Source: a bacterium
GTDB taxonomy: Bacteria > Electryoneota > JAOADG01
Direction of reading: 5' to 3'
NCBI GenBank assembly: GCA_963681965.1
Contig: OY820579.1
Span: 2,080,001 to 2,144,000, forward strand
DNA: 64,000 bases
Part shown: positions 4,358 to 63,960 of the stretch, piece by piece
How positions within the stretch are numbered: position 1 is the first letter of the stretch
Layout: every line of letters begins with the position of its first letter
Program-made: the position numbers and the translations under genes
The notes under the pieces: generated by a model
Database searches by the model: none
What the model was told of the DNA's origin: nothing
What the model saw: only the letters and a program-made list of their open reading frames with translations

Positions 4358-5536
4358 TCAGACAACTAAAACCACTTCGCGCTGGATATGCGAAGTCACA
4401 CATGGACCAGATGGATCCAAATACACATTAATTTCACTCCGGACACCGAATTCCGGCAGATAAATACCCGGTTCGATCGTGAATCCGGTTCTGGTAATCA
4501 ATCTGCGGGTATCGTGGGTCTCGAAATTGTCGATATTCGCACCGATACCGTGAACATGATCGCCCGGACTCAAACTGTGACCAGTGCGATGAATAAAAAA
4601 TTCTCCGTAACCCCGGCTGGAAATCGCGTTGCGCGCGGCATCGTCGACTTCCCATCCGTACACGGGTTGATTGTGACGATAGCGCTCTTCAACCAACGAT
4701 AGTGCAGCATCGCGACCGCTGAGCACGGCATTGAATACATCGAAGTGCTTGCCGGGGACATCGGTTCCGGCATATCCCGTCCAGGTGATGTCGCTGAAAA
4801 CGTGCTCTTCGCCCGGTTCGCGCGCCCAAAGATCGATTAGAATCCAATCGCCGGGATCGATCGTAAAGCGTAGGTCCGACGACGGTGCGTAGTGCGGATT
4901 GCCGCTTCGCTCATTGGTTGAGACGATCGGCACATCTTCCTCTTCCAGATTGTGCGTTTGAAAGGCGTTGCGAATAAACTGCTGCACATCGAAATCGGTT
5001 ATCGTTTCACCGCCGCGCAGCGCATCGCCGATCCGGTGGAATGCCGCGTCTTTGACACTATTGACGATCTCGGCTGTGATTAAATGTTTGTTCTTCGCCC
5101 GATCACTCCAGCGCGCTGTCAGCCATTGCACCAGATCGGCGGACGATGTCACCGAAAAACCGATACGGTGCAACAGTTCCATCGTTCCGGCATCGACGAT
5201 CGACATGGTCGGGATCGAACTGAAGGGGCAATATTCCATCGCTACGGTCTGATGCCACCGGCTGCACCAGTCGCTGAGTTTCGCTTCCATCTCGACATAA
5301 TTGGTGAACAACTCGACTGTGCCGGGAAAATCGGTGAATTGTTCGCTATCGACTTTGTGTACCAACGCGCGCGCCTCGCCGTGTTGGGGTATCCCGACGA
5401 AGACGCGACGGGTGGTCCAGAGTGTTCTCCCGACCAATCGTTTCCAGATTGGATTTGTCGCGCGAAAATCGTAGATCAACCATGCCTGACAACCGGTGTC
5501 CTGCAACGACTTTTGAATTTTTTCCAGATCGAACAT
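4358..5536 (-). CDS. M24 family (Xaa-Pro) aminopeptidase
   Basis: SDITWT, FIHRTGH, FTIEPGIY, GVRSE metal-binding motifs; start placed at MFDLEK. Confidence 0.88.
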   Translation of the reverse strand: MFDLEKIQKSLQDTGCQAWLIYDFRATNPIWKRLVGRTLWTTRRVFVGIPQHGEARALVHKVDSEQFTDFPGTVELFTNYVEMEAKLSDWCSRWHQTVAMEYCPFSSIPTMSIVDAGTMELLHRIGFSVTSSADLVQWLTARWSDRAKNKHLITAEIVNSVKDAAFHRIGDALRGGETITDFDVQQFIRNAFQTHNLEEEDVPIVSTNERSGNPHYAPSSDLRFTIDPGDWILIDLWAREPGEEHVFSDITWTGYAGTDVPGKHFDVFNAVLSGRDAALSLVEERYRHNQPVYGWEVDDAARNAISSRGYGEFFIHRTGHSLSPGDHVHGIGANIDNFETHDTRRLITRTGFTIEPGIYLPEFGVRSEINVYLDPSGPCVTSHIQREVVLVV

Positions 5537-5708
5537 GACCTGCTCCAGAGTAGCCCTAACTAAGAAAGGTACGGAAAACAAAGCGAGAACGTAACCAGCC
5601 GGAAATGGGTCTGTCTATTTTTATTACAGTTATGTTATTATGGAAGATAGTAATGTTTATTCGAATGATGCTACGGTAGTGTCGCTCGAAACTAAGTTGT
5701 TATCGGAA

Positions 5709-6221
5709 GTCGGGGCTAGCCCCCACGCCCGCTCGCCAACCCTTTTTCTAGTAGGGGCTGACCCCCATGTCCGTCCGTGTCCTTAAATTCTGTCATTGCG
5801 AGGACGCCGCAAAGCGGCGGACGTGGCAATCCACTCTTTTCGTCTTTTCCCAACACCCAATCCCTACCACCCAACACCCATTCTGTTGGTGGCGCAGGCC
5901 TCCGAGCCTGTGATTTTCCTGTAGTACTACCGATCTCCGATTCGGCATTTTGGATCTTTATCTGTCGTTGCGAAGACGACGCGAAGCGGCGGACGTGGCA
6001 ACCTACTCTTTTTTATTCTGTAGTAGTAGGAGCCCTCCGCGGCCTCCCGTTCCAGTATCATTTCTTTGGTTTCCTGTATCCTATTCTGTCGTTGCGAAGA
6101 CGACGCGAAGCGGCGGACGTGGCAACCTACTCTTTTATATTCTGTAGTAGTAGGAGCCCTCCGCGGTCTCCCGTTCCTGTAATCTTTTTTTCGATCCCGT
6201 AGGTCAGAACTTGTTCTGACC
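5709..6221. repeat. Cluster of REP-like palindromes upstream of the beta-propeller gene
   Basis: GTAG-led hairpins (5751, 6199), TGTCATTGCGAGG...CGTGGCAATCC element (5791-5832), near-identical 93-bp direct repeats at 5961-6053 and 6085-6177. Confidence 0.85.
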
Positions 6222-6301
6222 ACCTCCTGTGTCTCAAATTGAAAACAGATATCGAATCTAAATCCTTTAATTAAATTTTCTCCTATCGCTTATCAATTTG
6301 T

Positions 6302-6330
6302 TTGTAAACACTCTTCGTCCGCATTATTAT
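6302..6330 (+). promoter_or_regulatory. Putative sigma70 promoter
   Basis: TTGTAA-N17-TATTAT, upstream of GGAG RBS and ATG 6362. Confidence 0.5.
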
Positions 6331-6361
6331 TGATAGAACCACCTGTCCGACCGGAGCCGCC

Positions 6362-9355
6362 ATGACTTTCCGCCATCGCAGATTTCCACAATCAATGCTC
6401 GCCTTCGCGACGACTCTTATCTTCGTCTTCACAATCCTTCTTCCGCAAATTTCCTACGCCGTCTCGGTACAATCTTCGCGTCTTCCCCACCCTTTCCAGT
6501 TTACCGAGAACAAGGGGCAGTGGGATTCTGCCGTCCTCTATAAATGCGAGGTGCGACGCGATGGTTTCACCTGGTTCCTTGAGCGCGATGGTGTCACCCT
6601 CGTCACTTCCGCAATCGATTCCTCCTCTGTCATTGCGAAGGCGCCGAATGGCGCCTGTGGCAATCCACTCTTTTCAACTTTTCCCAACACCCAATCCCTC
6701 CCACCCAACTCTTATTCTATTGGTGGCGCAGGCCTCCGAGCCTGCGATCCTCTTGTGTCTGGTAAATTCCCCCTAAAATCTCACGCCCTCAAATTTAAAT
6801 TTGTCGTCTCCCGTAGGGGCGAATCGCAAAGTGCTCGCCGAAGGCAATCGCATTCGCCCCTATCTGTTCAAGATGCTCTCACTTGTCGTTGCGAGGAACG
6901 CAGCGAAGGATCGTCCGCCGTAGGCGGAAAGCCGCAGCGAAGTGACGAAGCAATCTACTCTTTTAAAGATTCAATGATACAGGAGGAGATTACCTTCGGT
7001 GAGCCCTTCGGGATTGCTTCGTCATTCCACTTCGGAAGTGCTTCGCACGTTCCTACGTTCATTCCTCGCAAAGACAAAATCAGGATTCAAGATACAAGAT
7101 TAGGGCGTATGCCATACGCCCCTACAGAAAAATATTCGACACAAGAGGATGTCGGAATAAATTCCGACCTACGAAAATACACTTGCGCGAAATGGATTGA
7201 TGCACAAGGTGAACGATCGTGGCATAACAATTATTTCCTCGGAAATGATTCCTCGAAATGGGCACCGGATTGCCGCAATTTTACACGCGTGGTGTATCAT
7301 GAGGTGTGGGAAGGCATCGACGTCGAGTGGTATGAGAGCAAAGGTCATCTCGAATTCGATTTCGTCGTCCATCCCGGTGCGGATCCCAAGCAAATTAAGA
7401 TGGTGTGTGAAGGGTTGGATGCGCCGATAGCAGGCGGAGGACGGACACTCTTGTCCGTCGACTCAGATATTTCTGTCACAAAAGGGAGTCGGACAGGAGT
7501 GTCCGACCTCCACTTATCGAATGAACTTTCGCTTCCCACCTCCCTCGGCGAACTCCGGATGTCAATTCCGGGGGCATACCAAACCACCTCCAACGGCACC
7601 CGCGGAAACGCTGTCACAGCACAATTCAGACTCGAGACAGGAAATGTCTTCGCCATCGATTTGCCGAATGGCTACGATGCATCACAAACGCTGAGAATCG
7701 ATCCTTTGGTGTATTCAACGTATTTGGGAGGAAGCGGAGGTGATCGTGCTGAGGCAATTGTAAGTGATCGAGTTGGGGGTACAGTTATGACTGGTCATAC
7801 ATCCAGCACCGATTTTCCCACGACTCCCGGAACGGGTGATCCCAGCGCTAATGGATATTCAGATTGTTTTATAGCAAAGATAGATTCAATAGGATCGAAT
7901 CTATTGTATGGTACTTATCTGGGGGGAAGTTACCACGATGAAGGGATGAGTGTCGATTACTACTTGGATGGCAGCATCTTAGTAACAGGTGAAACCCAAA
8001 GTCAAAACTTCCCAGTGACCGCCAACAGTCGTCCCTTCATGGGAAGTAGAAATGCATTTGTCACAAAAATTGGGACTAGTGGAAGCAATCTGGTATACAG
8101 TATTTTACTGGGTGGTGTAGGCATTTCTCTGGGTGATTGGGGTGAAACGATTTTGGACGATGGTTCAGGAGGTTGTTATGTTGCCGGTTTTACGGACAGC
8201 CCCAACTTTCCTACAACTTCGATCGACACCACCCTGGGCGGTGAAAGTGATGGTTTCATAACGCATATTGGGCAGACCGGACTTCTCTTTGCGAGTACCT
8301 ATTTAGGGGGGAGTGGGGGAGATTTTATTACTGATGTGCGAATTTCCTCCGATAGCAGTTTGTATGTATGCGGTTTCACGAATAGCAATGATTTCCCTAC
8401 AACACTTAATGCTTATTCTACAACACTGCATAGTACAGCCGATGAAGCTTTTATTGTTAAAATGAATATTACTTGTACTCAATTGATGCTAGGCACTTAC
8501 CTAGGTGGGGGAGCGCGAGATGGCGCTAGCTCACTTAAGGTAATGTCTGATGGAAGCATTGTTGTTGTGGGAACAACAGCCAGTCCTGATTTTCCAGTTC
8601 AAACTGTTTCTTTTGACACAATTTTCAATGCGCAAGTGAAAGGATATATAGCGATCCTGTCCAGTAACTTATCCACACTGCTTGCGAGCACATATTTAGG
8701 TGGAAATACCATTTCGAATTGCATGTCGTTGGACATCTCCCAAAACGGAAATTTAACCATCTCTGGAATAACCACCAGTATTAACTTTCCTACCACATCC
8801 AATGCTTTGCAGAGAGCGAGTGGAGGGTTGCGTGATGGTTTTTTCGCAGTCATGAATCGATCTTGTTCTCATCTGCTTTACAGCAGTTACTTGGGTGGTT
8901 CGAATGATGATGAATGCTATGCCCACTACTTAAAGGATTCAAATAACGTCGTACTAACTGGATGGACAGCTAGCTCGAATTTTCCACTTACTCCAGGGAG
9001 TTTCGACACCACATACACCGCATACACCTCCTTTCTCACCAATCTTCAATTTGAACCCGAAGTTTCGGTTATCAATGTGCCCCCTCTTCCTGTTAGCGAA
9101 AGACTGCTTTACGCTTACCCCAACCCCTTCAACTCCACCACCACACTTTCCTACATCCTCCCGATCACCTCTCACGTCGATCTCCGTCTCTACGATCTGA
9201 CCGGTCGCGAAGTCTCGACGCTGGTGCAACGCGAGCAGCACGCCGGAACGTATCGCCTACTGCTCGATGGTTCACGCTTAGCGAGTGGAACCTATTTCGT
9301 GCGGTTGCAAGCGGGAACATTTTCGAAGACACAGAAGATCGTGTTGTTAAAGTAG
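6362..9355 (+). CDS. Secreted SBBP-repeat beta-propeller protein with N-terminal FTENKGQW domain and T9SS-like C-terminal sorting domain; carries in-frame REP insertions
   Basis: Signal peptide; FTENKGQWD, NYFLGND, EFDFVVHPGADP, RIDPLVYSTYLGGS; repeated STYLGG/TxSxDFP; C-terminal AYPNPFN...YDLTGR...TQKIVLLK. Confidence 0.85.
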   Translation: MTFRHRRFPQSMLAFATTLIFVFTILLPQISYAVSVQSSRLPHPFQFTENKGQWDSAVLYKCEVRRDGFTWFLERDGVTLVTSAIDSSSVIAKAPNGACGNPLFSTFPNTQSLPPNSYSIGGAGLRACDPLVSGKFPLKSHALKFKFVVSRRGESQSARRRQSHSPLSVQDALTCRCEERSEGSSAVGGKPQRSDEAIYSFKDSMIQEEITFGEPFGIASSFHFGSASHVPTFIPRKDKIRIQDTRLGRMPYAPTEKYSTQEDVGINSDLRKYTCAKWIDAQGERSWHNNYFLGNDSSKWAPDCRNFTRVVYHEVWEGIDVEWYESKGHLEFDFVVHPGADPKQIKMVCEGLDAPIAGGGRTLLSVDSDISVTKGSRTGVSDLHLSNELSLPTSLGELRMSIPGAYQTTSNGTRGNAVTAQFRLETGNVFAIDLPNGYDASQTLRIDPLVYSTYLGGSGGDRAEAIVSDRVGGTVMTGHTSSTDFPTTPGTGDPSANGYSDCFIAKIDSIGSNLLYGTYLGGSYHDEGMSVDYYLDGSILVTGETQSQNFPVTANSRPFMGSRNAFVTKIGTSGSNLVYSILLGGVGISLGDWGETILDDGSGGCYVAGFTDSPNFPTTSIDTTLGGESDGFITHIGQTGLLFASTYLGGSGGDFITDVRISSDSSLYVCGFTNSNDFPTTLNAYSTTLHSTADEAFIVKMNITCTQLMLGTYLGGGARDGASSLKVMSDGSIVVVGTTASPDFPVQTVSFDTIFNAQVKGYIAILSSNLSTLLASTYLGGNTISNCMSLDISQNGNLTISGITTSINFPTTSNALQRASGGLRDGFFAVMNRSCSHLLYSSYLGGSNDDECYAHYLKDSNNVVLTGWTASSNFPLTPGSFDTTYTAYTSFLTNLQFEPEVSVINVPPLPVSERLLYAYPNPFNSTTTLSYILPITSHVDLRLYDLTGREVSTLVQREQHAGTYRLLLDGSRLASGTYFVRLQAGTFSKTQKIVLLK
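6626..6748 (+). repeat. In-frame repeat insertion 1 (copy of intergenic 5789-5914)
   Basis: 123 bp, TCTGTCATTGCGA...GCAGGCCTCCGAGCCTGCGAT; peptide SVIAKAPNGACGNPLFSTFPNTQSLPP matches the translation of the upstream non-coding copy. Confidence 0.9.
6813..7172 (+). repeat. In-frame repeat insertion 2 (nested palindrome pairs)
   Basis: GTAG at 6813 to CTAC at 7172 (360 bp); outer pair 6813-6862 / 7101-7125, inner pair 6884-6956 / 7011-7076, extra hairpin 7151-7172. Confidence 0.85.
7436..7511 (+). repeat. In-frame repeat insertion 3 (inverted GGAG-led REP pair)
   Basis: GGAGGACGGACACTCTTGTCCGTC ... GTCGGACAGGAGTGTCCGACCTCC. Confidence 0.8.
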
Positions 9356-9650
9356 GGGAGGGCTCGTGAGCCCTCCCGCCAGTAGGGGCGGGCTCCCACG
9401 CCCGCCCGTTCTTGTATCTTTTTCCTTTCCCAATTCCCAACACCTACCCCCTAACACCCTTATTTTCGGAGATGGCCCTTTAGGGCCGTCATTGCTGTTC
9501 TGTAGGGTTCATTCGCGAACGAACCGAGAGCGGTGCTACCTGCACCGCCGTAGGGCGTATGCGATTACCTTCGGTGAGCGCAGAGCGATACGCCCCTATG
9601 GAAAAAAGAGTAGGTTGCCACATCCGTTAGCCAACGGATTCGCACCGACA
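9352..9650. repeat. Cluster of REP-like palindromes downstream of the beta-propeller gene
   Basis: Several GTAGGG-led hairpins (the first overlaps the TAG stop); 9601-9650 is an inverted relative of the 5961/6085 repeat unit. Confidence 0.85.
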
Positions 9651-9671
9651 ATTCACGATTACGAAACAGCA

Positions 9672-9705
9672 GAAATACAAAACGCAGGCTTTCGCCTGCG
9701 TTGTT
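9672..9705 (-). terminator. Intrinsic terminator (possibly bidirectional)
   Basis: Stem AACGCAGGC/GCCTGCGTT with 4-nt loop and a U-rich tail on the minus strand, between convergent genes. Confidence 0.7.
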
Positions 9706-9744
9706 CGCACTTGTACTAAAACACCAAGAACTAATTTCGAAGCA

Positions 9745-11271
9745 CTATTGTCTTGCTTCATCTTCCGACTGAGGACCGACCCGAATCGAACCAATATAGA
9801 AATACCGCAGATTTAAATCGTGGCTGTAAATCCTGATCGAATTCTTCCCTTCGATCAATCGTTCGGAAATCGAAACCCGTTCCCAGCCGTCGGGATCGGA
9901 GGTATTCCACACCCGCGACGGTGCCCATTCGCTGGCGACCGGACGACCATTCACTTCAATCACGCCGAGTGTCCGGTTCATAAATGTCAATGGATAATTC
10001 GTCGTACCGCGAACCGCTTGCACCCAGAGGAACATCTGTGGATCGTTCGGGTTGTGTTTCGGTAAATTGAAATCGATCTGCAGGAACTGACCGCCCACCG
10101 GATTCTTGTTGGCATAAGCTAATCCGAATTCCCACGCATATCGATTCCACTGTCGCACAAACGAGATCTTCGGACCGGCATTGATATCATTCTTGAATCC
10201 ACCGACATCGGGATGAACGATCCCGGCAAACCATCGAGTCAGGTTGCTTGATACCGGTTTACCGTCCCCATCGACCCGCAATTCTACTGCATACCCGGTT
10301 TTGTAATAACCCGCGACCGGTTGCGATGGATCGGTTTGCGTCACGATGATCCGCATTTCCGGAGGTTTGATGTAACCCGTTACATCGCCGAATTCGATCA
10401 AGTGCGCACCGAACGAGAGATTGCCTTCCCATTTACCGATGCTGTGGAATGAATTGTCGATTGTAATCGGACCATCGATCGGACTCGTCTGAATTATCAC
10501 CGGACGCTGGGTCGAGACATTAATCGGAGTCAACTGAAAATTCAGTCGCTGCTCTTGAAATGCCGTACTGATCAGGACACTGGCTTCGGGAATATCGACT
10601 TTGAATCCGGCTTTCATCACTTGAATCCGGTGCATTCCCAACGGCATCAACAACCATGCGTCGGTTTCTTGCGGACTCAACTGTCCATCCAAGTAAATGG
10701 AAGCGCCCGGAATATTGGTCGAAACAAAAACGCGACCACTGCCACCCACCGAGGGGAACCGGTTTCGTTCACGAGGAATCGGTGCCGGTACAAAGTCCGA
10801 GCGAGGATAATCCAGATCCGGTCGATAATCCCGTGATTCGGTCGGTGGTACCGGTTTCGCTGGTGTCGGTGGAACGTACGGTTCGACTTGAGCCGGAAGT
10901 GAGTCTTGGTGAATCAGCCGAAATTTTGCAACCGATTGCTTTCCCGGTTCTACGTGAATAGCCAAACCGGATGGAAATGATACATAGGATTCACGTCGAA
11001 TTTCGACGATATAATCGCCCGGTTTCAACCCGCGAATGACAGCAGGCGTGACAAATCCAGTGGGTGCACGGTTGACGAGGATTTCCGCCCCTTTCGGTTT
11101 GGAAACGACCCCCAGTTCGCCGGGTAATTCGTATGTAAAATAAAAATATCCACTAACGATTAATACTAACGCGGTAAACGCAATAATAAACTGGATCAGC
11201 CAGCGGCGATCTTTAATCCCACTAGTAACCAACGTATCTGATTGCGGGCGGCTTCTCCAGAATAGAAGCAT
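9745..11271 (-). CDS. Membrane-anchored PEGA-domain protein
   Basis: N-terminal TM helix; repeated SKPKGAEILVN / STNIPGASIYLDG PEGA motifs. Confidence 0.75.
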   Translation of the reverse strand: MLLFWRSRPQSDTLVTSGIKDRRWLIQFIIAFTALVLIVSGYFYFTYELPGELGVVSKPKGAEILVNRAPTGFVTPAVIRGLKPGDYIVEIRRESYVSFPSGLAIHVEPGKQSVAKFRLIHQDSLPAQVEPYVPPTPAKPVPPTESRDYRPDLDYPRSDFVPAPIPRERNRFPSVGGSGRVFVSTNIPGASIYLDGQLSPQETDAWLLMPLGMHRIQVMKAGFKVDIPEASVLISTAFQEQRLNFQLTPINVSTQRPVIIQTSPIDGPITIDNSFHSIGKWEGNLSFGAHLIEFGDVTGYIKPPEMRIIVTQTDPSQPVAGYYKTGYAVELRVDGDGKPVSSNLTRWFAGIVHPDVGGFKNDINAGPKISFVRQWNRYAWEFGLAYANKNPVGGQFLQIDFNLPKHNPNDPQMFLWVQAVRGTTNYPLTFMNRTLGVIEVNGRPVASEWAPSRVWNTSDPDGWERVSISERLIEGKNSIRIYSHDLNLRYFYIGSIRVGPQSEDEARQ

Positions 11272-54039: not shown

Positions 54040-54114
54040 GCGCCTTTAGCTCAATTGGATCAGAGCATCTGACTACGGATCAGAAGGTTGGGGGTTCGAA
54101 TCCCTCAAGGCGCG
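54040..54114 (+). tRNA. tRNA-Arg(ACG)
   Basis: Acceptor GCGCCTT/AAGGCGC, D arm GCTC/GAGC, anticodon arm TCTGA-CTACGGA-TCAGA, T loop TTCGAAT; CCA not encoded. Confidence 0.95.
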
Positions 54115-54128
54115 CGACTTCCAGCGAG

Positions 54129-54160
54129 GTGCTAACTAAAGTGCTAACGCTGGAGCTAAC
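54129..54160 (+). repeat. Three direct 8-mers at 12-bp period (putative integrase arm sites)
   Basis: GTGCTAAC 54129, GTGCTAAC 54141, GAGCTAAC 54153. Confidence 0.65.
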
Positions 54161-54189
54161 GGTTATTGGATCACTCAAAGGAGTTTCCA

Positions 54190-55245
54190 ATGGCTGTTTC
54201 CCTCTTCCTCCGCAAATCCGGCATCTGGTATTTGAAGATCTCCAACCTCGGCAAAATCACTTGGAAAAGCACTGGCACGAAAGACCGCAAAGCCGCGCGA
54301 GCGTGTTTGCTGCAATATTCTCAGCAACAGGTCACCACAAAATCTTCTGTGTCAAAAAACAGCGACCGATCAGCACTGACATTGTCAGAATTTACCGCTG
54401 AATGTATGCGGTGGTCGCTGACGAATCACCGTAAATCGACAACCGTGATGTTTCGTGCAACTTTGGCTAATTTTCGTCGAATAGTTGGCGATCTTCCAAT
54501 TACTGATATCACCCTACGAAATGTTGACCAATTTAAAGCGAAACGATTAACTGAGGTTAACTCAACTTCGGTTAACATCGAGCTTCGCACGTTACGCTCA
54601 GCTCTACATCAAGCAAAGAAATGGGGTCTAATTTCGGAAGTACCGATTACCGGGAAAAATTTACTCAAAGTACCATCCGATACGATTGCACTGTCAGAGA
54701 GTGAAGTAAAACAGCTTCTGGATTCGATACAAGAGCCGTGGTTGCGTTCAATAGTACTGGTGGCAGTTTATACTGGTTTACGGAGAAACGAGCTTTGTCG
54801 ACTAACGTGGAGCGATTTTGACGAGTCCAGAGGATTATTGACGGTACATGAGTCGAAAGCGGGAAAGGCAAGGTGCATTCCATTATCCGAGGGGGTAACC
54901 CAAATCCTGGTTAGTATACCCAAAACGAGTGACAGGATCTTCACTTTGGATGGGAAACAACCGGTGCAAGGTTCGTGGGTATCACATTTGTTCAAGCGGT
55001 ATTGCCGGAAGCTAGGATTTTCAGAGAAGATTCATTTCCATACATTGCGACATACGTGTGCGTCGATCATGGTACGGAATGGAGTAAGTCTCTTCCATGC
55101 TAGTAAGGTGCTTGGTCATTCGTCGGTAGTTGTCACTGAGAAATTCTATGCGCACATGGGAGTCGAGGATTTGCGAAGTGCGGTGAATGTGGTGGGGCAG
55201 TTGCTCCAATCGAATCATAGGAATGGGAATCGATTGGTGGCGTGA
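54190..55245 (+). CDS. Tyrosine integrase with N-terminal arm-binding-like region
   Basis: TGLRR, SKAGK, HTLRH, LGH, KFY catalytic set; N-terminal WYL...WKSTGTKD; AAGGAG RBS. Confidence 0.93.
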   Translation: MAVSLFLRKSGIWYLKISNLGKITWKSTGTKDRKAARACLLQYSQQQVTTKSSVSKNSDRSALTLSEFTAECMRWSLTNHRKSTTVMFRATLANFRRIVGDLPITDITLRNVDQFKAKRLTEVNSTSVNIELRTLRSALHQAKKWGLISEVPITGKNLLKVPSDTIALSESEVKQLLDSIQEPWLRSIVLVAVYTGLRRNELCRLTWSDFDESRGLLTVHESKAGKARCIPLSEGVTQILVSIPKTSDRIFTLDGKQPVQGSWVSHLFKRYCRKLGFSEKIHFHTLRHTCASIMVRNGVSLFHASKVLGHSSVVVTEKFYAHMGVEDLRSAVNVVGQLLQSNHRNGNRLVA

Positions 55246-57284: not shown

Positions 57285-59939
57285 TCAATAAGTCTTTCGA
57301 TCTTCGATATCGGTCTTTTCAAGCAAACGATATAACCGGCATTTTCCGCGTGAAATGCTGTTATCGTGGACAATCTCGATTTGAAGATTTCCGAAAATGC
57401 GCCCCTTGATTCGATTAAGCGCTTTTCCGAGTCTCGTCTGCTTTGAGTGGTCGGAATCTTCACCCAAGATTGGAGATAGCAGCATTTTTCGATTGCAGAG
57501 ATCGAGTAATTGTTTGGTTTGTACCGGATCGCTTCTGTACTCATTCCACCAGCTTTCGGTAAATTCCAAGTACATCCCGGTATCCATACTCAGTTCTTGA
57601 AACACTTCATCGCTGTTACTCATAAAACCGGATATCGATACCGCATCGAAAAGACCTCCCATTTTTTTAACCCATTGTTCGAATGAACCCAGCGTTTGCT
57701 TCCCTTCGGGTTTTCCTAAAACAAACCATGCCCGAATTAATGTCAATGCTGCGATTACTAGTTTTCTTCGGTTGTGAAGTGTCCATTGTTCAATTTCGGG
57801 ATGAACAAAGCCCGTTCGCGACCAGGGTCGATCCGTATCAGGCGCTAATCGGCAGCGAATGCTTCTTCGTGCCAATTCTTCGGAGATGGAGATGTTATTG
57901 GCGGTGATTAGAATTATCATCCGATTGGGAACTGAGATGATTTCAGATTTACCGAGTAATCGTCCCGAATAACTCTGACTAGTAAGAATTAAAGCCAATA
58001 CGTCCGAGTTGAGTTTACGATGTTCAGGGAAGTTGTCGAATACTAAGATCGGGGTTCCGTGAATGAGTTCGGCGAGAATCATTTTCTTCAATTCATCGTT
58101 ATTTTCCGGAAAAGCTCTTGGACTACACACTTCACCGGTTGCAATAATCGACACGACATTGCACAATTTACTCTTTCCACTTCCTGCAACTGATGCTTCG
58201 ATGATATGTAATGGTGTATATCCATCAATTAGGTGTCGAACGAAGGGTAAGAGAATACATGCGATGATTGTCGCCTGATCCGTACTTTTTCGCTCAAATG
58301 GAAAATTGACCAATAAATCTTCAGTAAAGTACTTTTTTGCATCATCTATCTCTTCTAGTGTGGGGATTTCTGGAATCATGATATTGCACAAATCTTCCGG
58401 CAAATCGACGTAGATACCAGTTTCACTATCGTAACCTGATAATGATAACAACCTACCTTCGGTTGTAAATATCGGCAATCGCACAATTGATTCAAGTTTT
58501 GGAATTCGTGAATCAATACGTGTCAATATATCCTTCATGAGAGGATCGGTAGGTTGTGTCGCTATCAACTTTCCAGATCTGGTACTAAACCAGTTAGCAC
58601 ACCGGATAAGATGACCAAATAAGTCTGACATTTGAATTAAGTGGGTTTGTAACTGATTATTTACGGGATTATAGTTCAATTCGATAAGCTGTTGTCCATA
58701 TCGAAAAATATGTGGTGGATTGTTTTTCTCAATTAATGCGTTCCACGCATCACAGATTACATCGGGGAGCTGACGATTATATACATTGATCGTTGGAAGT
58801 AGACTGTCAAGATCGACATTCGGCATCGCTTCCATTGCTGGTAGTGACACTCCAGTTTTGTCCGCTACCCATCGACAAGCATCCTTGAAATCTTTTGCGA
58901 TTCCGCGATTGATCAGGAAATCGAAAACCGAGTAGGAACGACCACTCCGAAACGAATGAAAGGAGCCTTTTTGTGCCGATCCTTCGCCGGAAGCAACGCT
59001 GGCGGAAGGGTGACGATCGCCGGACGGCGAATCGGGATCGCGGCATTCCAACCAGCCACCCAATCTCGTTCGACCTGTCAGGTAGTCGCCATATACCGCA
59101 TTCAGGTTAAGTTTACCTAAAGCATGTTGACGCCATTCCGAATAATCGTTCGGAGCTTGAGTAGATACTTCAGATGAATCACAATCGCTCTTCGAAGGTT
59201 GTGACGTCGATGAATTTCGAGTAAGACATATGATTGCTTGTAGTACACGTTCGTGTGAAATCGTTTCAAAGATCTCCGGATCATACTGATAAAACTCGTA
59301 GTCATCATCCAACCGGTAGAATTGGTTGCAACCGGGATTTGCGCCGTGCCACATGGGCAGCCAGACGGCATTTCCGCAACCATTATTGCTGATCCGTTCG
59401 GTTTTGGGAAAGACCTCGATCCCGCGATTATCGCCGGGACTTGCATACCCGCCGTTTTCGAGCTGCTGATTGGGTGGACATAATAGAAAACCAAGTCGAC
59501 GCGCATCCTTCGCAGGAATTGATCCTTCGAAAAAGAGCCAGAGATGATAGCCATTGCCTCGCCCCGACCGTTCGATGAAACTTGGCAAGGATGCACTGTG
59601 AGCGATTTCATAAGCAGCTTTCACGGCACTTTCAGGATCACGTAAAGAATCTTTATGTTCAGGACCACCGTCGAAATCGATACAGAGCCATCGGGTCATT
59701 CCTTGTACGTCGGGTGTATAGGTTGCGATTCGAAAACAACTGGTTTTCAGTTGTGAACCACGATTATTGACGATTTCTACTGGACATTGAAAAAGTCTAT
59801 TCCCGGTAAGGTGACCTAATATCAGTTGATCCAAGGTACCATTCACTTGAATTGGATGGGGCTTACTTCCTAACATGACTGCAATTTTATCGGTTCGATT
59901 GAAGAACGCATTTCGGATCATTTCTACATTATTCATCAT
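57285..59939 (-). CDS. AEP primase fused to P-loop helicase-like domain
   Basis: WLCIDFDG, ERSGRGNGYHLWLFF, IEVFPK..GNAVWLP (AEP); AGSGKS, LVFDN, LITANN, ELARR (AAA+/SF3-like). Confidence 0.82.
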   Translation of the reverse strand: MMNNVEMIRNAFFNRTDKIAVMLGSKPHPIQVNGTLDQLILGHLTGNRLFQCPVEIVNNRGSQLKTSCFRIATYTPDVQGMTRWLCIDFDGGPEHKDSLRDPESAVKAAYEIAHSASLPSFIERSGRGNGYHLWLFFEGSIPAKDARRLGFLLCPPNQQLENGGYASPGDNRGIEVFPKTERISNNGCGNAVWLPMWHGANPGCNQFYRLDDDYEFYQYDPEIFETISHERVLQAIICLTRNSSTSQPSKSDCDSSEVSTQAPNDYSEWRQHALGKLNLNAVYGDYLTGRTRLGGWLECRDPDSPSGDRHPSASVASGEGSAQKGSFHSFRSGRSYSVFDFLINRGIAKDFKDACRWVADKTGVSLPAMEAMPNVDLDSLLPTINVYNRQLPDVICDAWNALIEKNNPPHIFRYGQQLIELNYNPVNNQLQTHLIQMSDLFGHLIRCANWFSTRSGKLIATQPTDPLMKDILTRIDSRIPKLESIVRLPIFTTEGRLLSLSGYDSETGIYVDLPEDLCNIMIPEIPTLEEIDDAKKYFTEDLLVNFPFERKSTDQATIIACILLPFVRHLIDGYTPLHIIEASVAGSGKSKLCNVVSIIATGEVCSPRAFPENNDELKKMILAELIHGTPILVFDNFPEHRKLNSDVLALILTSQSYSGRLLGKSEIISVPNRMIILITANNISISEELARRSIRCRLAPDTDRPWSRTGFVHPEIEQWTLHNRRKLVIAALTLIRAWFVLGKPEGKQTLGSFEQWVKKMGGLFDAVSISGFMSNSDEVFQELSMDTGMYLEFTESWWNEYRSDPVQTKQLLDLCNRKMLLSPILGEDSDHSKQTRLGKALNRIKGRIFGNLQIEIVHDNSISRGKCRLYRLLEKTDIEDRKTY

Positions 59940-60883
59940 TCACCTCGCAAACTCATCCGGTTCAGCTGACCATTATTCATCATATTGGATCGGTTCAGTA
60001 TCGGGAGACTTCCCAACTGTCGGTCGATAGTAGCAACAGCACCACGTAGATCTTCCACAGAGATGTGAGCATAAAACTTCTCAGTAACCACTACCGAGGA
60101 GTGTCCCAATACTTTCGAGGCGTGGTACAAACTGACCCCATTGGCAACCATAATACTCGCGCAAGTGTGTCGGAGAGTATGGAAGTGAATCTTTTCGGAA
60201 AAGCCGAGTTTTCGACAGTAACGTTTGAACAGGTGAGTCACCCACGAGCTGCCGATCATGTGTTCGCCATTGATTGAGAAGATGTATTGTGATGTTTGGG
60301 GTAATTGCTTCAGTGCTACACGTACTGACTCGGAAACGGGGATACAGCGCGACTTTCCTGCTTTAGACTCATGGACGGTGAGTAGTCCACGGATAGAGTC
60401 GTAATCGTTCCAAATCAAGCGACAGATCTCGCTCCGCCGCAGACCGGTGTGAACTGCAAGCAGTACCATCGCTTTGAACCACGGTTCCAGTATCGCATCG
60501 AGTAACCGATTGACTTCGGTTTCCGATAATGCAATTGTGTCGCAGGGAACTTTGATCAGGTGCTTGCCAGTGATTGGAACTCTATCGATCAACTCCCAGC
60601 GCTTCGCTTGATTGAGTGCGCTACGGATTGCTCTTAGTTCGACGTTCACCGATACCGGCTTAACGCTAATCAATCGTGCCGCTTTGAATTGCTCGATCAA
60701 CCGCTCGTTGATTTTGGCGATGGGTATATCACCAAAGATATCGAGCAGATTCCGAAAGGTATTCCCGTAGATTGTCGTCGTGCCCGGTCGATGATTCGAA
60801 CGTGACCAGGAAAGGCATTCATCACGGAATACCGTTAGCGATGGTGATTTACACCGAGGTTGTTTACTAGAAACCTTATTCAT
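59936..60883 (-). CDS. Second tyrosine recombinase, paralog of 54190 integrase lacking its N-terminal region
   Basis: Same catalytic residues; HLFKRYCRKLGFSEKIHFHTLRHTCASIMV identical; ATGA overlap with primase; start uncertain (60883 or 60904). Confidence 0.9.
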   Translation of the reverse strand: MNKVSSKQPRCKSPSLTVFRDECLSWSRSNHRPGTTTIYGNTFRNLLDIFGDIPIAKINERLIEQFKAARLISVKPVSVNVELRAIRSALNQAKRWELIDRVPITGKHLIKVPCDTIALSETEVNRLLDAILEPWFKAMVLLAVHTGLRRSEICRLIWNDYDSIRGLLTVHESKAGKSRCIPVSESVRVALKQLPQTSQYIFSINGEHMIGSSWVTHLFKRYCRKLGFSEKIHFHTLRHTCASIMVANGVSLYHASKVLGHSSVVVTEKFYAHISVEDLRGAVATIDRQLGSLPILNRSNMMNNGQLNRMSLRGE

Positions 60884-60890
60884 TTGTTGC

Positions 60891-61054
60891 AAGCCTTCAC
60901 ACAAAAAATAATATTTCCCGATTTTCTGCGTGTCAGCAGTTGAAATCGGTCAGTGAAGGCTTCGTAAAACGCAGGTGAGAAAATCGTGTCGGAAGTACGC
61001 CTTCATATTAGAAGGCGCTACTTTTGTCGTAGCATTTGCTACTTTTTTCGTAGC
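60891..61054. promoter_or_regulatory. Operator-like palindrome cluster
   Basis: GCTAC-N7-GTAGC at 61017-61033 and 61038-61054; CGCCTTC-N6-GAAGGCG at 60998-61017; AAGCCTTCAC 60891 / GTGAAGGCTT 60953. Confidence 0.65.
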
Positions 61055-61081: not shown

Positions 61082-63121
61082 TTACGTAAACCATTCAATG
61101 TTTTGACCGGGATTATAACTTGGATATCTCCCACATGTCAAACGAGGAGACTTAAGATGCTCTGATAAATTTATATCGAATTTTGCTAAATCCATTTTCA
61201 CTCGTCGGATTGCAGCGATAAATGCTTTTCGCACTTTGTCAGAATCATCATGTAGTTTTCTCGTATGGTATCGGATGTCTTTACTTCTCTTTAAATATTC
61301 AAAGTAAGTACGAATCTCTTCATTAATTTCTGCTACTGATCGGAGCGTTGGTTCGCCTTTACATTCAGCATCTGTAGCGTCTTTAAGATCGACCTGCAAT
61401 TCTTTTATCTTGGCTTGACAAGCTAGAACTGTAGAATCGTCAATAACATCAAACCCCCTTTTGAGTATGAACATCTCCGGCTGTTTCGATTCGAGGCGTA
61501 CTAAATCATTAACTTTGAATTCCTGATTTGGATGAGACAATAAAGTATGAAGATATGCCGCACCAATAGAGGGAGGAATAACAAATTCCTTACCCCCATT
61601 GAATCTTACGAGCCATCCTTTGCCTTGCTGAATGAAAACGTTTTTATGTCCATCAGTTATCGACTGGTATGAAGAAGTATTTGCTTCTGAGGAATTACTC
61701 AGTCGTCTTGAATAATCACACACCATCGTTAGCAAACAATGCTCTGGAAGATTGTGCTCTCGAAATGAACTTGCGTAGTTTTTGATCGCAGTATCGACCA
61801 CTCTGGTCACTTCTACTGCATGTCTTCGATAGAGGTCGTACAATTTAGCAGCGACAGTGTCGGGCGATTCATTAAAATGTCTTAGTATCCTTGAAGCTTC
61901 CCCATATTTAATAAAGAATTCGTTCGAAGTCATTTTGCTTACTGCTGTAGCACTATCGACATAAGCAGCGAGCATTGTTCGCGTCAGCGCCTCTTCGCGA
62001 TTGCCGGTTAATAAATCAATCCCATATCCTTCAGCATTATCATACTTCTCAAGACCCGCTGAAAGGATTGAAAATCGGCGGTCGATACATTGCGAACATT
62101 TTCCGCAATGCGGAGTTTGATTGCTCATCTCCCATGTGTGATTGCAACTTGTCGAATTATTAATCAACTCACAACAATCGGCATTCTCAATTATCTTCAG
62201 TACCTCCGGTTTCGTCTTCCAGATGAAAGGATTTTCAACAACGAATTCGGTTCCAGATACCGCACTGATAATTTTAGAGAAGCCATTAATAACTTGTGGG
62301 TGAGTTGTTCGTGTAGCTCTTGCACCGACAACTTGCGGCGAAGGGGGGAGATTAAAACTAATAACCCCATTCTCGTAAAAACGAAGACGCTTCAATCCGA
62401 TCATTCGTGCAATCGTTGTCCCTAATGCAGCATATAGAAAAGATCGTGATCTTTGAGTGTATTCCTTAGTAAGAATGCTACTTTTAAAAATTGTTACGGA
62501 AATATGATGTGGTTTGAAGTGGGATCGTTCGTTTAATAATTCAATCAACTGCTCGAGGCGTTTGTGCATTTTCTGAGTCGGTCGGTGAGACACAAGAGCG
62601 ACTTTCCTTTCGTCGATAACAGCTTCTTGAACAGCACCACCCAACGAATCGATACCACCGGAAAACATCATTACTTCATCTATTTCGGGTAATTCGTATG
62701 GAATCAGTTTTTGTTCCGGTTGCATCTGCGTTAGCTTACAGAACTCAAAATTGTATTCATCTTCTGATAAGAAACCGAGTGTTTCACACAGTTGATTTTT
62801 GATCTTGGAGTCATTCCAGTGATCCGGTTCTCGAACTGCGATGCGAAAGAACAACCTTCGCCGCCAATCAGTACCAAAACTCGCGGCATTGTCGCTACCG
62901 CGAGGGATGGCTTGATCGGCACAGTAAACATAAGTCGCTATTTCAAGTAGATCGTGAATAAGAGATGGTACATCGCGAAGCAGATGCTCACGAACATCCG
63001 CAATTTCCAACTTGACGTTTTCTTTTTGCCCCCACAGATGAAACCATAAGTATTTATCGTCAACACAAGGAAGCCGATTAATTGGAACATCACCGCACAA
63101 AATTGCCCGTTCAGTTGGCAT
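61082..63121 (-). CDS. QueC/QatC-like PP-loop enzyme fused to C-terminal putative DNA-binding domain
   Basis: DLLEIATYVYCAD, FSGGIDS, QRSRSFLY, ENGVIS, TRTTHP, NPF..KTK, SC..HCGKCSQC; extra ~190-aa C-terminal domain. Confidence 0.82.
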   Translation of the reverse strand: MPTERAILCGDVPINRLPCVDDKYLWFHLWGQKENVKLEIADVREHLLRDVPSLIHDLLEIATYVYCADQAIPRGSDNAASFGTDWRRRLFFRIAVREPDHWNDSKIKNQLCETLGFLSEDEYNFEFCKLTQMQPEQKLIPYELPEIDEVMMFSGGIDSLGGAVQEAVIDERKVALVSHRPTQKMHKRLEQLIELLNERSHFKPHHISVTIFKSSILTKEYTQRSRSFLYAALGTTIARMIGLKRLRFYENGVISFNLPPSPQVVGARATRTTHPQVINGFSKIISAVSGTEFVVENPFIWKTKPEVLKIIENADCCELINNSTSCNHTWEMSNQTPHCGKCSQCIDRRFSILSAGLEKYDNAEGYGIDLLTGNREEALTRTMLAAYVDSATAVSKMTSNEFFIKYGEASRILRHFNESPDTVAAKLYDLYRRHAVEVTRVVDTAIKNYASSFREHNLPEHCLLTMVCDYSRRLSNSSEANTSSYQSITDGHKNVFIQQGKGWLVRFNGGKEFVIPPSIGAAYLHTLLSHPNQEFKVNDLVRLESKQPEMFILKRGFDVIDDSTVLACQAKIKELQVDLKDATDAECKGEPTLRSVAEINEEIRTYFEYLKRSKDIRYHTRKLHDDSDKVRKAFIAAIRRVKMDLAKFDINLSEHLKSPRLTCGRYPSYNPGQNIEWFT

Positions 63122-63896
63122 CGGTGTTTGCACCATCTTTCAGCATTTTTGTGATATTTTGCAATGCTGTCTGAGCAAATCCGGCCGCAATTCGTCGTGA
63201 GATACCAGTTTGTTTGCGTTTCTTCAGGGAAAACAACTCACCAGTGAATTCTTCTATTACTTCAGATGCTTCAAAAGTGTGTTTACTTAGAGCGTTGGTG
63301 AATTCTCCTTGCTGTGATATTGTTTTAAAACGAGCGTTTTCACCGATTTTTAGCGGTGTAATCATGCTCAAATGGTAGTTGAGACATTTATTGGTTAAGC
63401 GAGCGAAGAAATCTCTGATAAATGCGTTGTAATGTCGAGAAGTATTTAAATCGTAGAACGCTAATTGGGTTTCGATAGGGGTTGAGCGAAAAATATCCTT
63501 GATGCGTGTTAAAATTGAATTGGAAATGGTCTCGACTGCAGCCATCTGAGCCATTTCCCCCAAATCTGATCGACCACCGGAATTTCTAATCTTCTGATCG
63601 ATAGCATCGGAGAAAGCGCCAATAATTTCCATCACACTTGGAGCATTTGAAACTTGTAGACCGATTTTACGGAGGGCATCTGAAAATTCCTCCTTTTTCG
63701 CAGCTATCGGTAATTGCGTTAATAGCCAGACTGTCTCGGAAAGACATTTATCGTGAACAGCGTCATCGAATATATGTTCGATAGCAGAAGCCGTGGCTTG
63801 GGCAATTTGAGGAGAATCTGCCCCACAATCGAGCAAATTCTTTACTTCAGTCCATTTGCGGGTGTTTGGAAGTTTGCCTAATCTTATATGCCCCAT
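63111..63896 (-). CDS. Helical partner protein of the QueC-like enzyme (QatB-analogous)
   Basis: Likely start MGHIRLG at 63896; stop overlaps the QueC-like start (ATGCCAACTGA). Confidence 0.7.
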   Translation of the reverse strand: MGHIRLGKLPNTRKWTEVKNLLDCGADSPQIAQATASAIEHIFDDAVHDKCLSETVWLLTQLPIAAKKEEFSDALRKIGLQVSNAPSVMEIIGAFSDAIDQKIRNSGGRSDLGEMAQMAAVETISNSILTRIKDIFRSTPIETQLAFYDLNTSRHYNAFIRDFFARLTNKCLNYHLSMITPLKIGENARFKTISQQGEFTNALSKHTFEASEVIEEFTGELFSLKKRKQTGISRRIAAGFAQTALQNITKMLKDGANTDAN

Positions 63897-63960
63897 CAAT
63901 TCACCCAACCTTTACTAGATGAATAATCAAGAACTAATGATTTAGGACTAAGAGTGAAGC

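Follow-up and report, generated by a model that had tools for sequence, protein, structure and literature searches.

A QatB-QatC-type gene pair with a fused winged-helix-type domain and a conserved palindromic element on a tRNA-Arg island: a candidate switch with transcriptional output

A stretch of 64,000 nucleotides from the genome of a bacterium (GTDB lineage Bacteria; Electryoneota; JAOADG01) was analyzed and is referred to here as the window. The window corresponds to bases 2080001-2144000 of contig OY820579.1 (assembly GCA_963681965.1), a single-contig genome of 4.24 Mb with a completeness of 99.9%. It contains a pair of overlapping genes for a 261-residue partner protein and a 684-residue QatC-like enzyme. 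Downstream of the pair, on the same strand, are found two palindromes, a terminator-like hairpin, a tyrosine integrase gene, and a gene for an 884-residue primase-type protein (Table 1). The anatomy of the locus is settled: a partner with the QatB fold, a QatC-type enzyme, a winged helix fused to this enzyme, a conserved cis element linked to the winged-helix domain, and a mobile island. The interpretation that is preferred here, with a probability of about 0.5, is that of a QatBC-type switch with a transcriptional output, carried on a tRNA-Arg island.

Table 1. Features of the gene pair and its surroundings, in window coordinates
Feature	Position	Strand	Remarks
Partner gene, 261 aa, begins MGH	63111..63896	-	Predicted QatB fold, all-helical; invariant N-terminal M-G-H..L-G.LP.T..W
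QatC-like open reading frame (ORF) with fused C-terminal domain, 684 aa	61082..63136	-	26-nt overlap with partner ORF
QatC-like part, residues 1-476: N-extension, PP-loop core, Zn site, C-extension	61709..63136	-
PP-loop SGGIDS, residues 159-164	62645..62662	-	S159, G160, G161, D163, and S164 invariant
Zinc-site cysteines C331, C344, C347, C350 (SC...HCGKCSQCIDRR)	62087..62146	-	Motif as for the QatC cluster in PMC13329287
C-terminal domain, residues ~495-684: predicted OmpR/PhoB-type winged helix with ~70-residue coiled-coil hairpin insert	61085..61654	-
Perfect sigma-70-type consensus TTGACA-18-TATAAT (12/12)	61112..61141	-	Within the final codons of the QatC-like ORF; reads into P1/P2
P1, GCTAC-N7-GTAGC palindrome, GCTACGAAAAAAGTAGC	61038..61054	-	28 nt past the QatC-like stop codon
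P2, second GCTAC-N7-GTAGC palindrome, GCTACGACAAAAGTAGC	61017..61033	-	21 nt from P1
P3, conserved GCCTTC-loop-GAAGGC hairpin	60999..61016	-
3' hairpin and U-rich tail, terminator-like	60918..60949	-	Just ahead of the integrase start; covarying terminator at the homologous position in other loci
Tyrosine integrase (int2)	59936..60904	-	Pfam Phage_integrase 5e-32; next gene 3' of the QatC-like gene
884-aa primase-type protein, AEP-TOTE domain	57285..59939	-	Pfam PF22548 9e-17; 4-nt overlap with int2
tRNA-Arg(ACG), left island end	54040..54115	+

The Gene Pair and Its Predicted Complex

An earlier sequence-only reading of the window had located the coupled pair, and both the positions of the two ORFs and the Met-Gly-His start that it regarded as probable for the partner were borne out. 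In all 25 aligned partner sequences the residues M1, G2, H3, L6, G7, L9, P10, T12, and W15 are invariant, including the glycine whose conservation the proposal depended upon. An alternative TTG start codon at 63908, which adds the residues MGEL, is disfavored; the homologues are 260-261 residues long, with the first three residues the same throughout. The partner belongs to a tight family of proteins of ~260 residues, with 839 matches at E ≤ 0.001. No match was obtained for the partner with the models of Pfam and NCBIfam or with the PADLOC model for QatB, nor with any PDB sequence at E ≤ 10, and the NCBIfam model for QatB (NF041924) has no match at E ≤ 1 anywhere in the genome.

The AlphaFold model of the partner is all-helical with a mean predicted local distance difference test score (pLDDT) of 74, and residues 1-21 are of low confidence and appear flexible. 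The first two ranks in a Foldseek comparison of this model with 350,542 PDB chains are QatB, and no match at E ≤ 0.001 was given by Foldseek alone for this model or for that of the C-terminal domain of the enzyme. The VIA aligner provided a Z of 13.0 for QatB chain 9y01_A, with a root-mean-square deviation (rmsd) of 4.1 Å, 201/215 residues aligned, and 12% identity. Z values of 12.8 and 6.7 were obtained for a second QatB chain and for the next unrelated chain, respectively. On the strength of these models, the partner is a QatB-fold protein that is missed by sequence models. The tail before its first helix consists of ~12-20 residues, versus 30-90 residues reported for QatB (PMC13279940). A shorter protein of 210 residues in the representative library (P0131) begins with MGHxxLGxLP and runs directly into the winged-helix domain; the intervening part appears to be deleted, or the protein is an assembly artefact.

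From its sequence, the 684-residue protein is QatC-like, with all of the catalytic motifs kept. The PADLOC model for QatC (PDLC02214) matches residues 59-377 at 6.3e-50, and among PDB sequences the solved QatC chains are matched at 2e-25 (9vlk) and at 1e-19 (another chain). The score against the NCBIfam model for QatC (NF041925) is 194.1 bits (195.3 bits in a second scan), which is under the equivalog cut-off of 280, and the Pfam QueC match is confined to residues 281-354. In an alignment of 32 relatives, the PP-loop (FSGGIDS, residues 158-164), R229/R231, N256-G257, H279-P280, P303, and C331/C344/C347/C350 are invariant, as are the RxR, TRTTHP, and PxxxxTK motifs. The catalytic motifs given by Libby et al. 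for the QatC cluster (PMC13329287) are all present: D..R..WxR, DxYxxxF, RxRxxxF/Y, ExG, HP, P(x)4TK, C..CGxCxxC..RR, and both threonines of TRTTHP. The first of these has a longer spacer here, from R79 to W91. The two threonines are essential in QatC according to Gao et al. (PMC13279940). The N-terminal extension, PP-loop, and cysteine cluster that had been assigned from the sequence are thus confirmed by the PADLOC and PDB matches and by the alignment.

Residues 1-480 of the enzyme and the partner, both supplied as alignments, were modeled as a complex in three runs together with three controls. An ipSAE of 0.93 was obtained in all three runs, and the best of the controls gave 0.05; of 80 solved complexes, 58 attain the mark applied to this score, as do 2 of 110 mismatched pairs. 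The runs share at least 91% of their contacts, and the pLDDT of the partner is at least 87. In the model, partner residues 1-10 and 12 contact enzyme residues 82-94, 227, 258-277, 332, and 348-352. The C-extension of the enzyme (383-430 and 465-476) and the loop 264-275 contact the helices of the partner, as in the QatBC crystal structures. The N-terminus of the partner is predicted to lie in the QatC-like active site, which is where the sequence-only reading had expected it. Because QatBC complexes have already been solved, this result may reflect likeness to them and is not proof of binding.

The similarity to the QatB-QatC core of QatABCD (9y01/9y02, 9vlk, and 9zee) is extensive. The enzyme shares with QatC the N- and C-extensions, the PP-loop, TRTTHP, PxxxxTK, and the variant zinc motif. 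The partner shares with QatB the fold and the N-terminal Met-Gly. The predicted interface is formed by the same parts as in the crystal complexes, and in both cases the gene for the partner comes first and overlaps that for the enzyme. In contrast to the window, QatABCD has qatA (KAP NTPase) and qatD (TatD) in the operon. QatB carries an MGTS motif where the partner has MGH, and the partner escapes the QatB models; the enzyme, beyond scoring under the QatC cut-off, has an additional winged-helix domain of 190 residues, and its gene is followed by a conserved cis element. The resemblance to Cap9 with its CD-NTase in the type IV cyclic-oligonucleotide-based antiphage signaling system (CBASS) is that of a QueC-family enzyme whose target is the N-terminal glycine of a partner, as would be the case here. 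However, Cap9 has ~185 residues and the canonical QueC substrate residues, whereas the window protein has 684 residues and QatC-type motifs. The partner of Cap9 is a CD-NTase, and no cyclase, Cap10, or effector is found near the pair in the window.

The neighborhood survey that had been suggested as a check was conducted with one genome per species, and the partner family was found at 80 loci across many phyla. At 76 of these loci the partner gene is followed by a QatC-like gene, which is directly adjacent at 75. No recurrent cluster of QatA- or QatD-like neighbors was found among the 80 loci. In IMG/VR, the partner occurs on 20 viral contigs, 19 of which also carry a QatC-like gene.

The C-Terminal Domain and the Element behind the Stop Codon

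The additional C-terminal domain that was noted from the sequence is real and conserved. Its model (pLDDT 84) consists of a three-stranded sheet with helices, a long helical hairpin, an arginine-rich helix, and a small hairpin, and the insert precedes the putative recognition helix (DDSDKVRKAFIAAIRRV) and the wing (L..G....Y.P.....W). No match was found for the domain among the models of Pfam, NCBIfam, and PADLOC. In a wide VIA search the top structure was BaeR, with a Z of 9.0 and an rmsd of 2.8 Å for 97 aligned residues (model residues 27-214). At least 12 further DNA-binding domains of the OmpR/PhoB, CadC, and ToxR types have Z values of 6.7-7.8, with 84-99 residues aligned on both sides of the insert. 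These include GlnR (7.8, 90/95), ToxR (7.3, 99), CadC (7.2, 99/107), and OmpR-C (6.7), with CssR and CpxR within the same range. The VIA rows of like Z that are confined to model residues 93-157 are generic helical hairpins. Since a Z near 7 is common for helical models, weight is placed on the coverage and on the number of family members. The Foldseek rows for this domain are weak but repeatedly of the OmpR type. We read the domain, from its model, as a winged helix of the OmpR/PhoB type that contains a coiled-coil insert and as a putative DNA binder, in keeping with the regulatory role that had been suggested for it.

A 27-sequence profile of the domain matches 16,522 cluster representatives at E ≤ 0.001, 12,467 at 1e-10, and 3,780 at 1e-30. 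In most of the best 150 of the 16,522 representatives, the match lies at the C-terminus of the protein, and the proteins range from 146 to 1683 residues. The sampled N-terminal parts include AAA_16-TPR-guanylate cyclase (P0186), a DnaG zinc ribbon with a reverse transcriptase, and an archaeal-type helicase domain; for several of the sampled proteins the N-terminal part belongs to no family. A protein atlas search of the domain returned unnamed clusters only. Of 401 sampled Actinomycetota genomes, 7 of which are unpublished, 73 carry the domain. The corresponding figures are 35 of 301 for Planctomycetota and 3 of 79 for the host phylum, where the domain was not found in the genome of the same genus. 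The likeness to large actinobacterial ATPase regulators that had been perceived from the sequence is therefore correct, with P0186 as an example.

The QatC-like relatives at the surveyed loci have 563-922 residues, and the domain of the window type is found at full length in 27 of the 80 loci. The strict palindrome GCTAC-N7-GTAGC is unique to this place in the host genome. Across the 80 loci (~1.1 Mb) there are 35 strict matches in 23 loci, all of which are positioned from -15 to +65 nt relative to the QatC-like stop codon; chance palindromes are ruled out by these two observations. The sites occur in 22 of the 27 loci with the window-type domain. Both half-sites are changed in 4 others (GCAAC/GTTGC, GCGAC/GTCGC, GGGAC/GTCCC, and GCCAC/GTGGC), and no site is found in the remaining one (L018). 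In the loci without the window-type domain, some of which are cut by contig ends, a strict site appears in 1 of 53. Of the 9 viral contigs with the domain, 8 have strict sites and 1 has a variant, and none of the 10 without it has a site. Where two copies are present, they are spaced 20-22 nt apart, and the element is kept across phyla. No code that relates the half-site variants to residues of the recognition helix could be read from the few variants. The palindromes next to the pair that had been pointed out beforehand are thus present, conserved, and linked to the domain.

The element is also found behind genes that have no QatC part. In the host phylum, a 612-residue protein (locus L123) has only the C-terminal domain in common with the window protein (24% identity, residues 498-682), and its gene is followed by two copies of GCCAG-N7-CTGGC 21 nt apart and then by a Prim-Pol-like ORF. 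A set of 27 Planctomycetota loci, 24 of which lack the QatC part, was analyzed in the same manner (L178 and L179 repeat L017 and L007). Within ~100 nt of the stop codon, 31 palindromes of the 5-7-5 form occur in 18 loci, versus 6.1 expected from the remainder of these loci. Pairs of copies with a spacing of 19-23 nt appear in 8 loci, and sites of the form GCNAC-N7-GTNGC in 9 of the 24 loci without QatC. Judged from these sequences, the cis element follows the domain and not QatC.

In 25 actinobacterial loci (5 from unpublished genomes were left out), clean 5-7-5 palindromes are rare. After the domain genes of this set, ACGCC occurs 16 times on the coding strand versus 5.3 expected, and its reverse complement 3 times versus 4.3 expected; the enrichment is a hint only, because the motif was chosen after looking. 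The motif is often CACGCC and is found 25-55 nt after the stop codon. Repeats at 20-22 nt in the actinobacterial loci number 21 versus 14 expected, which is not significant. Two single domain proteins that were used as queries against the viral contigs found nothing.

The same stretch may be considered as an RNA element, either a 3' untranslated region or leader with protein-binding hairpins and a terminator (cf. the nut/boxB antitermination of phages) or a small RNA. The arginine-rich helix would then bind the hairpins, or the RNA would act alone. The 177 nt of the element in the window fold with a z-score of -3.84. In an alignment of 14 loci, 11 of 27 predicted pairs have compensatory changes on both sides, mostly in the terminator, and further blocks are conserved. 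The asymmetric loops are conserved, with complementary blocks CGCCGG/CCGGCG/GCCGGGCC, and the actinobacterial ACGCC enrichment on the coding strand alone, with the motif picked after looking, agrees with an RNA. Against this, the fold of the domain is that of binders of double-stranded DNA, and the stems are conserved rather than freely covarying. Several copies of P2 have a mismatch in the middle of the stem, which is not tolerable in an RNA stem of 5 base pairs. No Rfam family matches at E ≤ 1 in five loci, and the window gives chance-level rows only. An RNA element is considered improbable.

None of 35 related loci shares the sigma-70 consensus that the window has at the end of the QatC-like ORF, and a conserved internal promoter is not supported.

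Neighbors, Alternative Tails, and the Island

The recurrent neighbors of the pair are large serine recombinases (19 loci), tyrosine integrases (11 and 4 loci), DUF2924 (5 loci), a primase-like family (8 loci), SNF2/NOV_C helicases (7 loci), and a weakly sigma-like family of 215 residues (10 loci). The genes downstream of the pair on viral contigs include PD-(D/E)XK nucleases, RecD2 and DEAD helicases, Prim-Pol with DUF3987, and a methylase. The downstream genes vary between loci, yet they are often replication or recombination genes. A backbone recurs around the pair in L006, L007, L008, L013, L017, L019, L022, L031, L035, and L036. It consists of DUF2924, a serine recombinase, and a family of 140 residues upstream, and of the weakly sigma-like 215-residue family, a family of 114 residues, and then the primase-like gene downstream. 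Within one family of integrative elements, the pair may have a fixed location.

At locus L078 (9434-11290), where the enzyme is still paired with the partner, a nuclease tail of the DpnII/MboI type (PF18742, 1.5e-7) replaces the winged helix. Other QatC-like relatives have tails with no Pfam match. By sequence comparison, the C-terminal tail of the QatC-like proteins is a slot. A nuclease-type tail in a sister protein fits the effector slot of a classical defense system, and the pair could be plain defense cargo: a minimal QatBC-type antiphage pair in the cargo slot of a mobile element. The winged helix would then sense or tether DNA or autoregulate, the palindromes and terminator would serve their own operon, and the mobilization genes would not be controlled. 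QatBC alone protects against lambda-vir (PMC13279940), and about two thirds of the QatC-cluster genes have no qatA or qatD neighbors (PMC13329287). The pair is found beside varied recombinases, SNF2/NOV_C helicases, and other genes, and a covarying terminator closes the cassette. However, the same cassette of domain and sites follows proteins that lack the QatC part. The domain also ends STAND-like AAA_16-TPR proteins and resembles a general regulatory output, and the arrangement of two sites on one face of the DNA ahead of replication genes recurs. Plain defense cargo is judged less likely than the preferred reading.

The term "candidate new system" in the sequence-only reading was too strong. 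QatB-QatC alone is already known to suffice for defense (PMC13279940), and the QatBC core and its function without QatA and QatD are known as well. The accessible literature does not describe the fusion of QatC to an output domain of the DNA-binding type, the cis element, or how large the unnamed domain family is. No QatC-regulator fusion and no such cis element was found there; fusions of QatC or two-gene variants may already be tabulated in the supplements of PMC13329287 and PMC13279940.

As had been stated from the window itself, the pair is not adjoined by a gene for TatD, an ATPase, or a cyclase, or by any que gene. Neither qatA nor qatD is present within 16 kb on either side. The best match to QatA in the genome scores 89 bits (cut-off 600) at a distance of ~440 kb, and the best match to QatD scores 87 bits (cut-off 230) at ~1.7 Mb. 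A CBASS or full Qat system just outside the window, which would have spoken against the earlier proposal, is ruled out; no such genes lie beyond 64000, and the QatA- and QatD-like matches are remote and below the cut-offs. What is found beyond 64000, upstream of the pair, is a 900-residue beta-helix protein with a type IX secretion system (T9SS) tail, insertion sequence (IS) elements, and more secreted proteins.

A tyrosine integrase adjoins the tRNA-Arg gene (span 54040-55245). A direct copy of 57 nt of the 3' part of this tRNA lies outside the window, at 74961-75017 on the window scale, and since the 3' part is thus copied at the far end, the pair is placed inside an island of ~21 kb. Besides the pair, the island contains an IS5-type transposase gene between the primase gene and an XRE gene, and further IS copies. 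The island is composite: in addition to these IS elements, it holds two related integrases and four proteins that are secreted or T9SS-tailed. The archaeo-eukaryotic primase (AEP) domain of the 884-residue protein is of the type found in TOTE conflict systems, and the remainder of this protein has no Pfam match.

The only match to PF06508 in the genome is the QatC-like gene itself. PTPS/QueD has no match in this nearly complete genome, and for QueE there is only a 24-bit radical-SAM match to the B. subtilis-type enzyme; TGT is kept. With no canonical QueC and no QueD, 7-carboxy-7-deazaguanine is probably not made by the host, which probably salvages queuosine precursors. Both QueC and QueD are present in five other hosts of the pair.

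A decaying remnant, in which the island is eroding and the cassette has fallen out of use in this host, would account for the IS5 insertion, the two integrases, and the further IS copies. It would also suit a host without QueC and QueD and a domain that is found in so few genomes of the phylum (3/79, and not in the same genus). Both genes and the cis element, though, are intact, and neither protein is missing any of the conserved residues; such a remnant is considered very improbable.

A Candidate Switch and Its Weighing

The preferred reading remains that of a QatBC-type switch with a transcriptional output, and the binding, the direction of control, the signal, and the chemistry that we infer for it may be described as follows. 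The amine of Gly2 in the partner would be exposed after removal of Met. The QatC-type PP-loop enzyme would clamp the partner and hold its N-terminus in the ATP-dependent active site where, by analogy with QatBC and Cap9, it would most likely join an activated carboxylate to the Gly2 amine. This QatBC-type reaction would be the input that sets the state of the DNA-binding domain, and the fused domain would be the output. The occupancy of P1 and P2 would decide what is transcribed through the element and on into the following genes, which in the window encode the integrase and the primase. The sigma-70 consensus near the 3' end of the QatC-like ORF is directed into the element, although it is not conserved elsewhere.

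Several observations weigh against this reading. An int2-like gene is present in only 9 of the 80 loci and a primase like that of the window in 7 of 80. With a terminator following them, the sites are oddly placed for a simple operator. Since the domain and the sites are physically adjacent, some of their co-occurrence is expected from shared descent alone. The CGCCGG loop of P2, CCGGCG, and GCCGGGCC are kept in an RNA-compatible manner. The Pfam model Trans_reg_C (PF00486) has no match at E ≤ 1 in the whole protein or in 27 sequences of the domain, and hhalign against 31 OmpR-type domains from the host phylum gives a P of 0.001 with a probability of 21%. The nuclease tail of L078, with its fit to a defense effector slot, belongs here, as does the sufficiency of QatB-QatC alone for defense against lambda-vir and some phages (PMC13279940). 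Cap9-type chemistry with 7-carboxy-7-deazaguanine is doubtful in a host without QueC and QueD. The rival explanations are kept alive by the terminator behind the sites, the RNA-like conservation, and the nuclease-tailed sister proteins.

Published work disagrees on the substrate of QatC. QatC is reported to be inactive with 7-carboxy-7-deazaguanine (PMC13376578), the reaction is left unresolved in another study (PMC13279940), and a low-level deazaguanine adduct on QatB is detected by liquid chromatography-tandem mass spectrometry in a third (PMC13639016). A host without the deazaguanine pathway offers a natural test of whether a QatC-type enzyme needs this compound. The product, signal, and effector of QatB-QatC are unresolved in the three structure papers from 2026, and the fusion of QatC to a DNA-binding-type domain points to transcription as one concrete output.

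The fold of the domain is the likeness to the OmpR/PhoB, CadC/ToxR, and SARP activators, together with repeated sites that are spaced by whole helical turns near the target promoter region. The likeness to large ATP-binding regulators is the fusion of the domain to AAA_16-TPR in other proteins. Unlike the OmpR/PhoB types, the window domain escapes Trans_reg_C, carries a hairpin of ~70 residues, and is C-terminal in most of the proteins listed, and its candidate sites are palindromic and lie directly after its own stop codon.

The switches of temperate phages and satellites (lambda cro-nutR-tR1-replication genes; Stl of the Staphylococcus aureus pathogenicity islands, SaPI) have no sequence or fold relation to the window proteins. 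The likeness is in layout only: a position between the recombinase and replication modules, where the replication genes are preceded by hairpins or sites and then a terminator.

Tentatively, N-terminal modification by a QatC-type enzyme could be the input of a transcription factor, and the cassette could be a master switch of integrative and phage-like elements that senses infection or induction and opens the replication and recombination genes. More broadly, the domain and its cis element could be a portable output module on QatC, AAA_16-TPR-cyclase, primase-reverse transcriptase, and helicase proteins. A family with 3,780 representatives at E ≤ 1e-30, no Pfam model, and a recognizable cis element would permit regulon prediction for thousands of uncharacterized proteins.

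At loci L021 (~4900-9960) and L127, a 1683-residue protein that is composed of a DnaG zinc ribbon, a reverse transcriptase, and the same C-terminal domain is encoded directly upstream of the partner and the QatC-like gene. A relative of this reverse transcriptase protein (P0162) matches the PADLOC model RT_UG19 at 3.8e-43.

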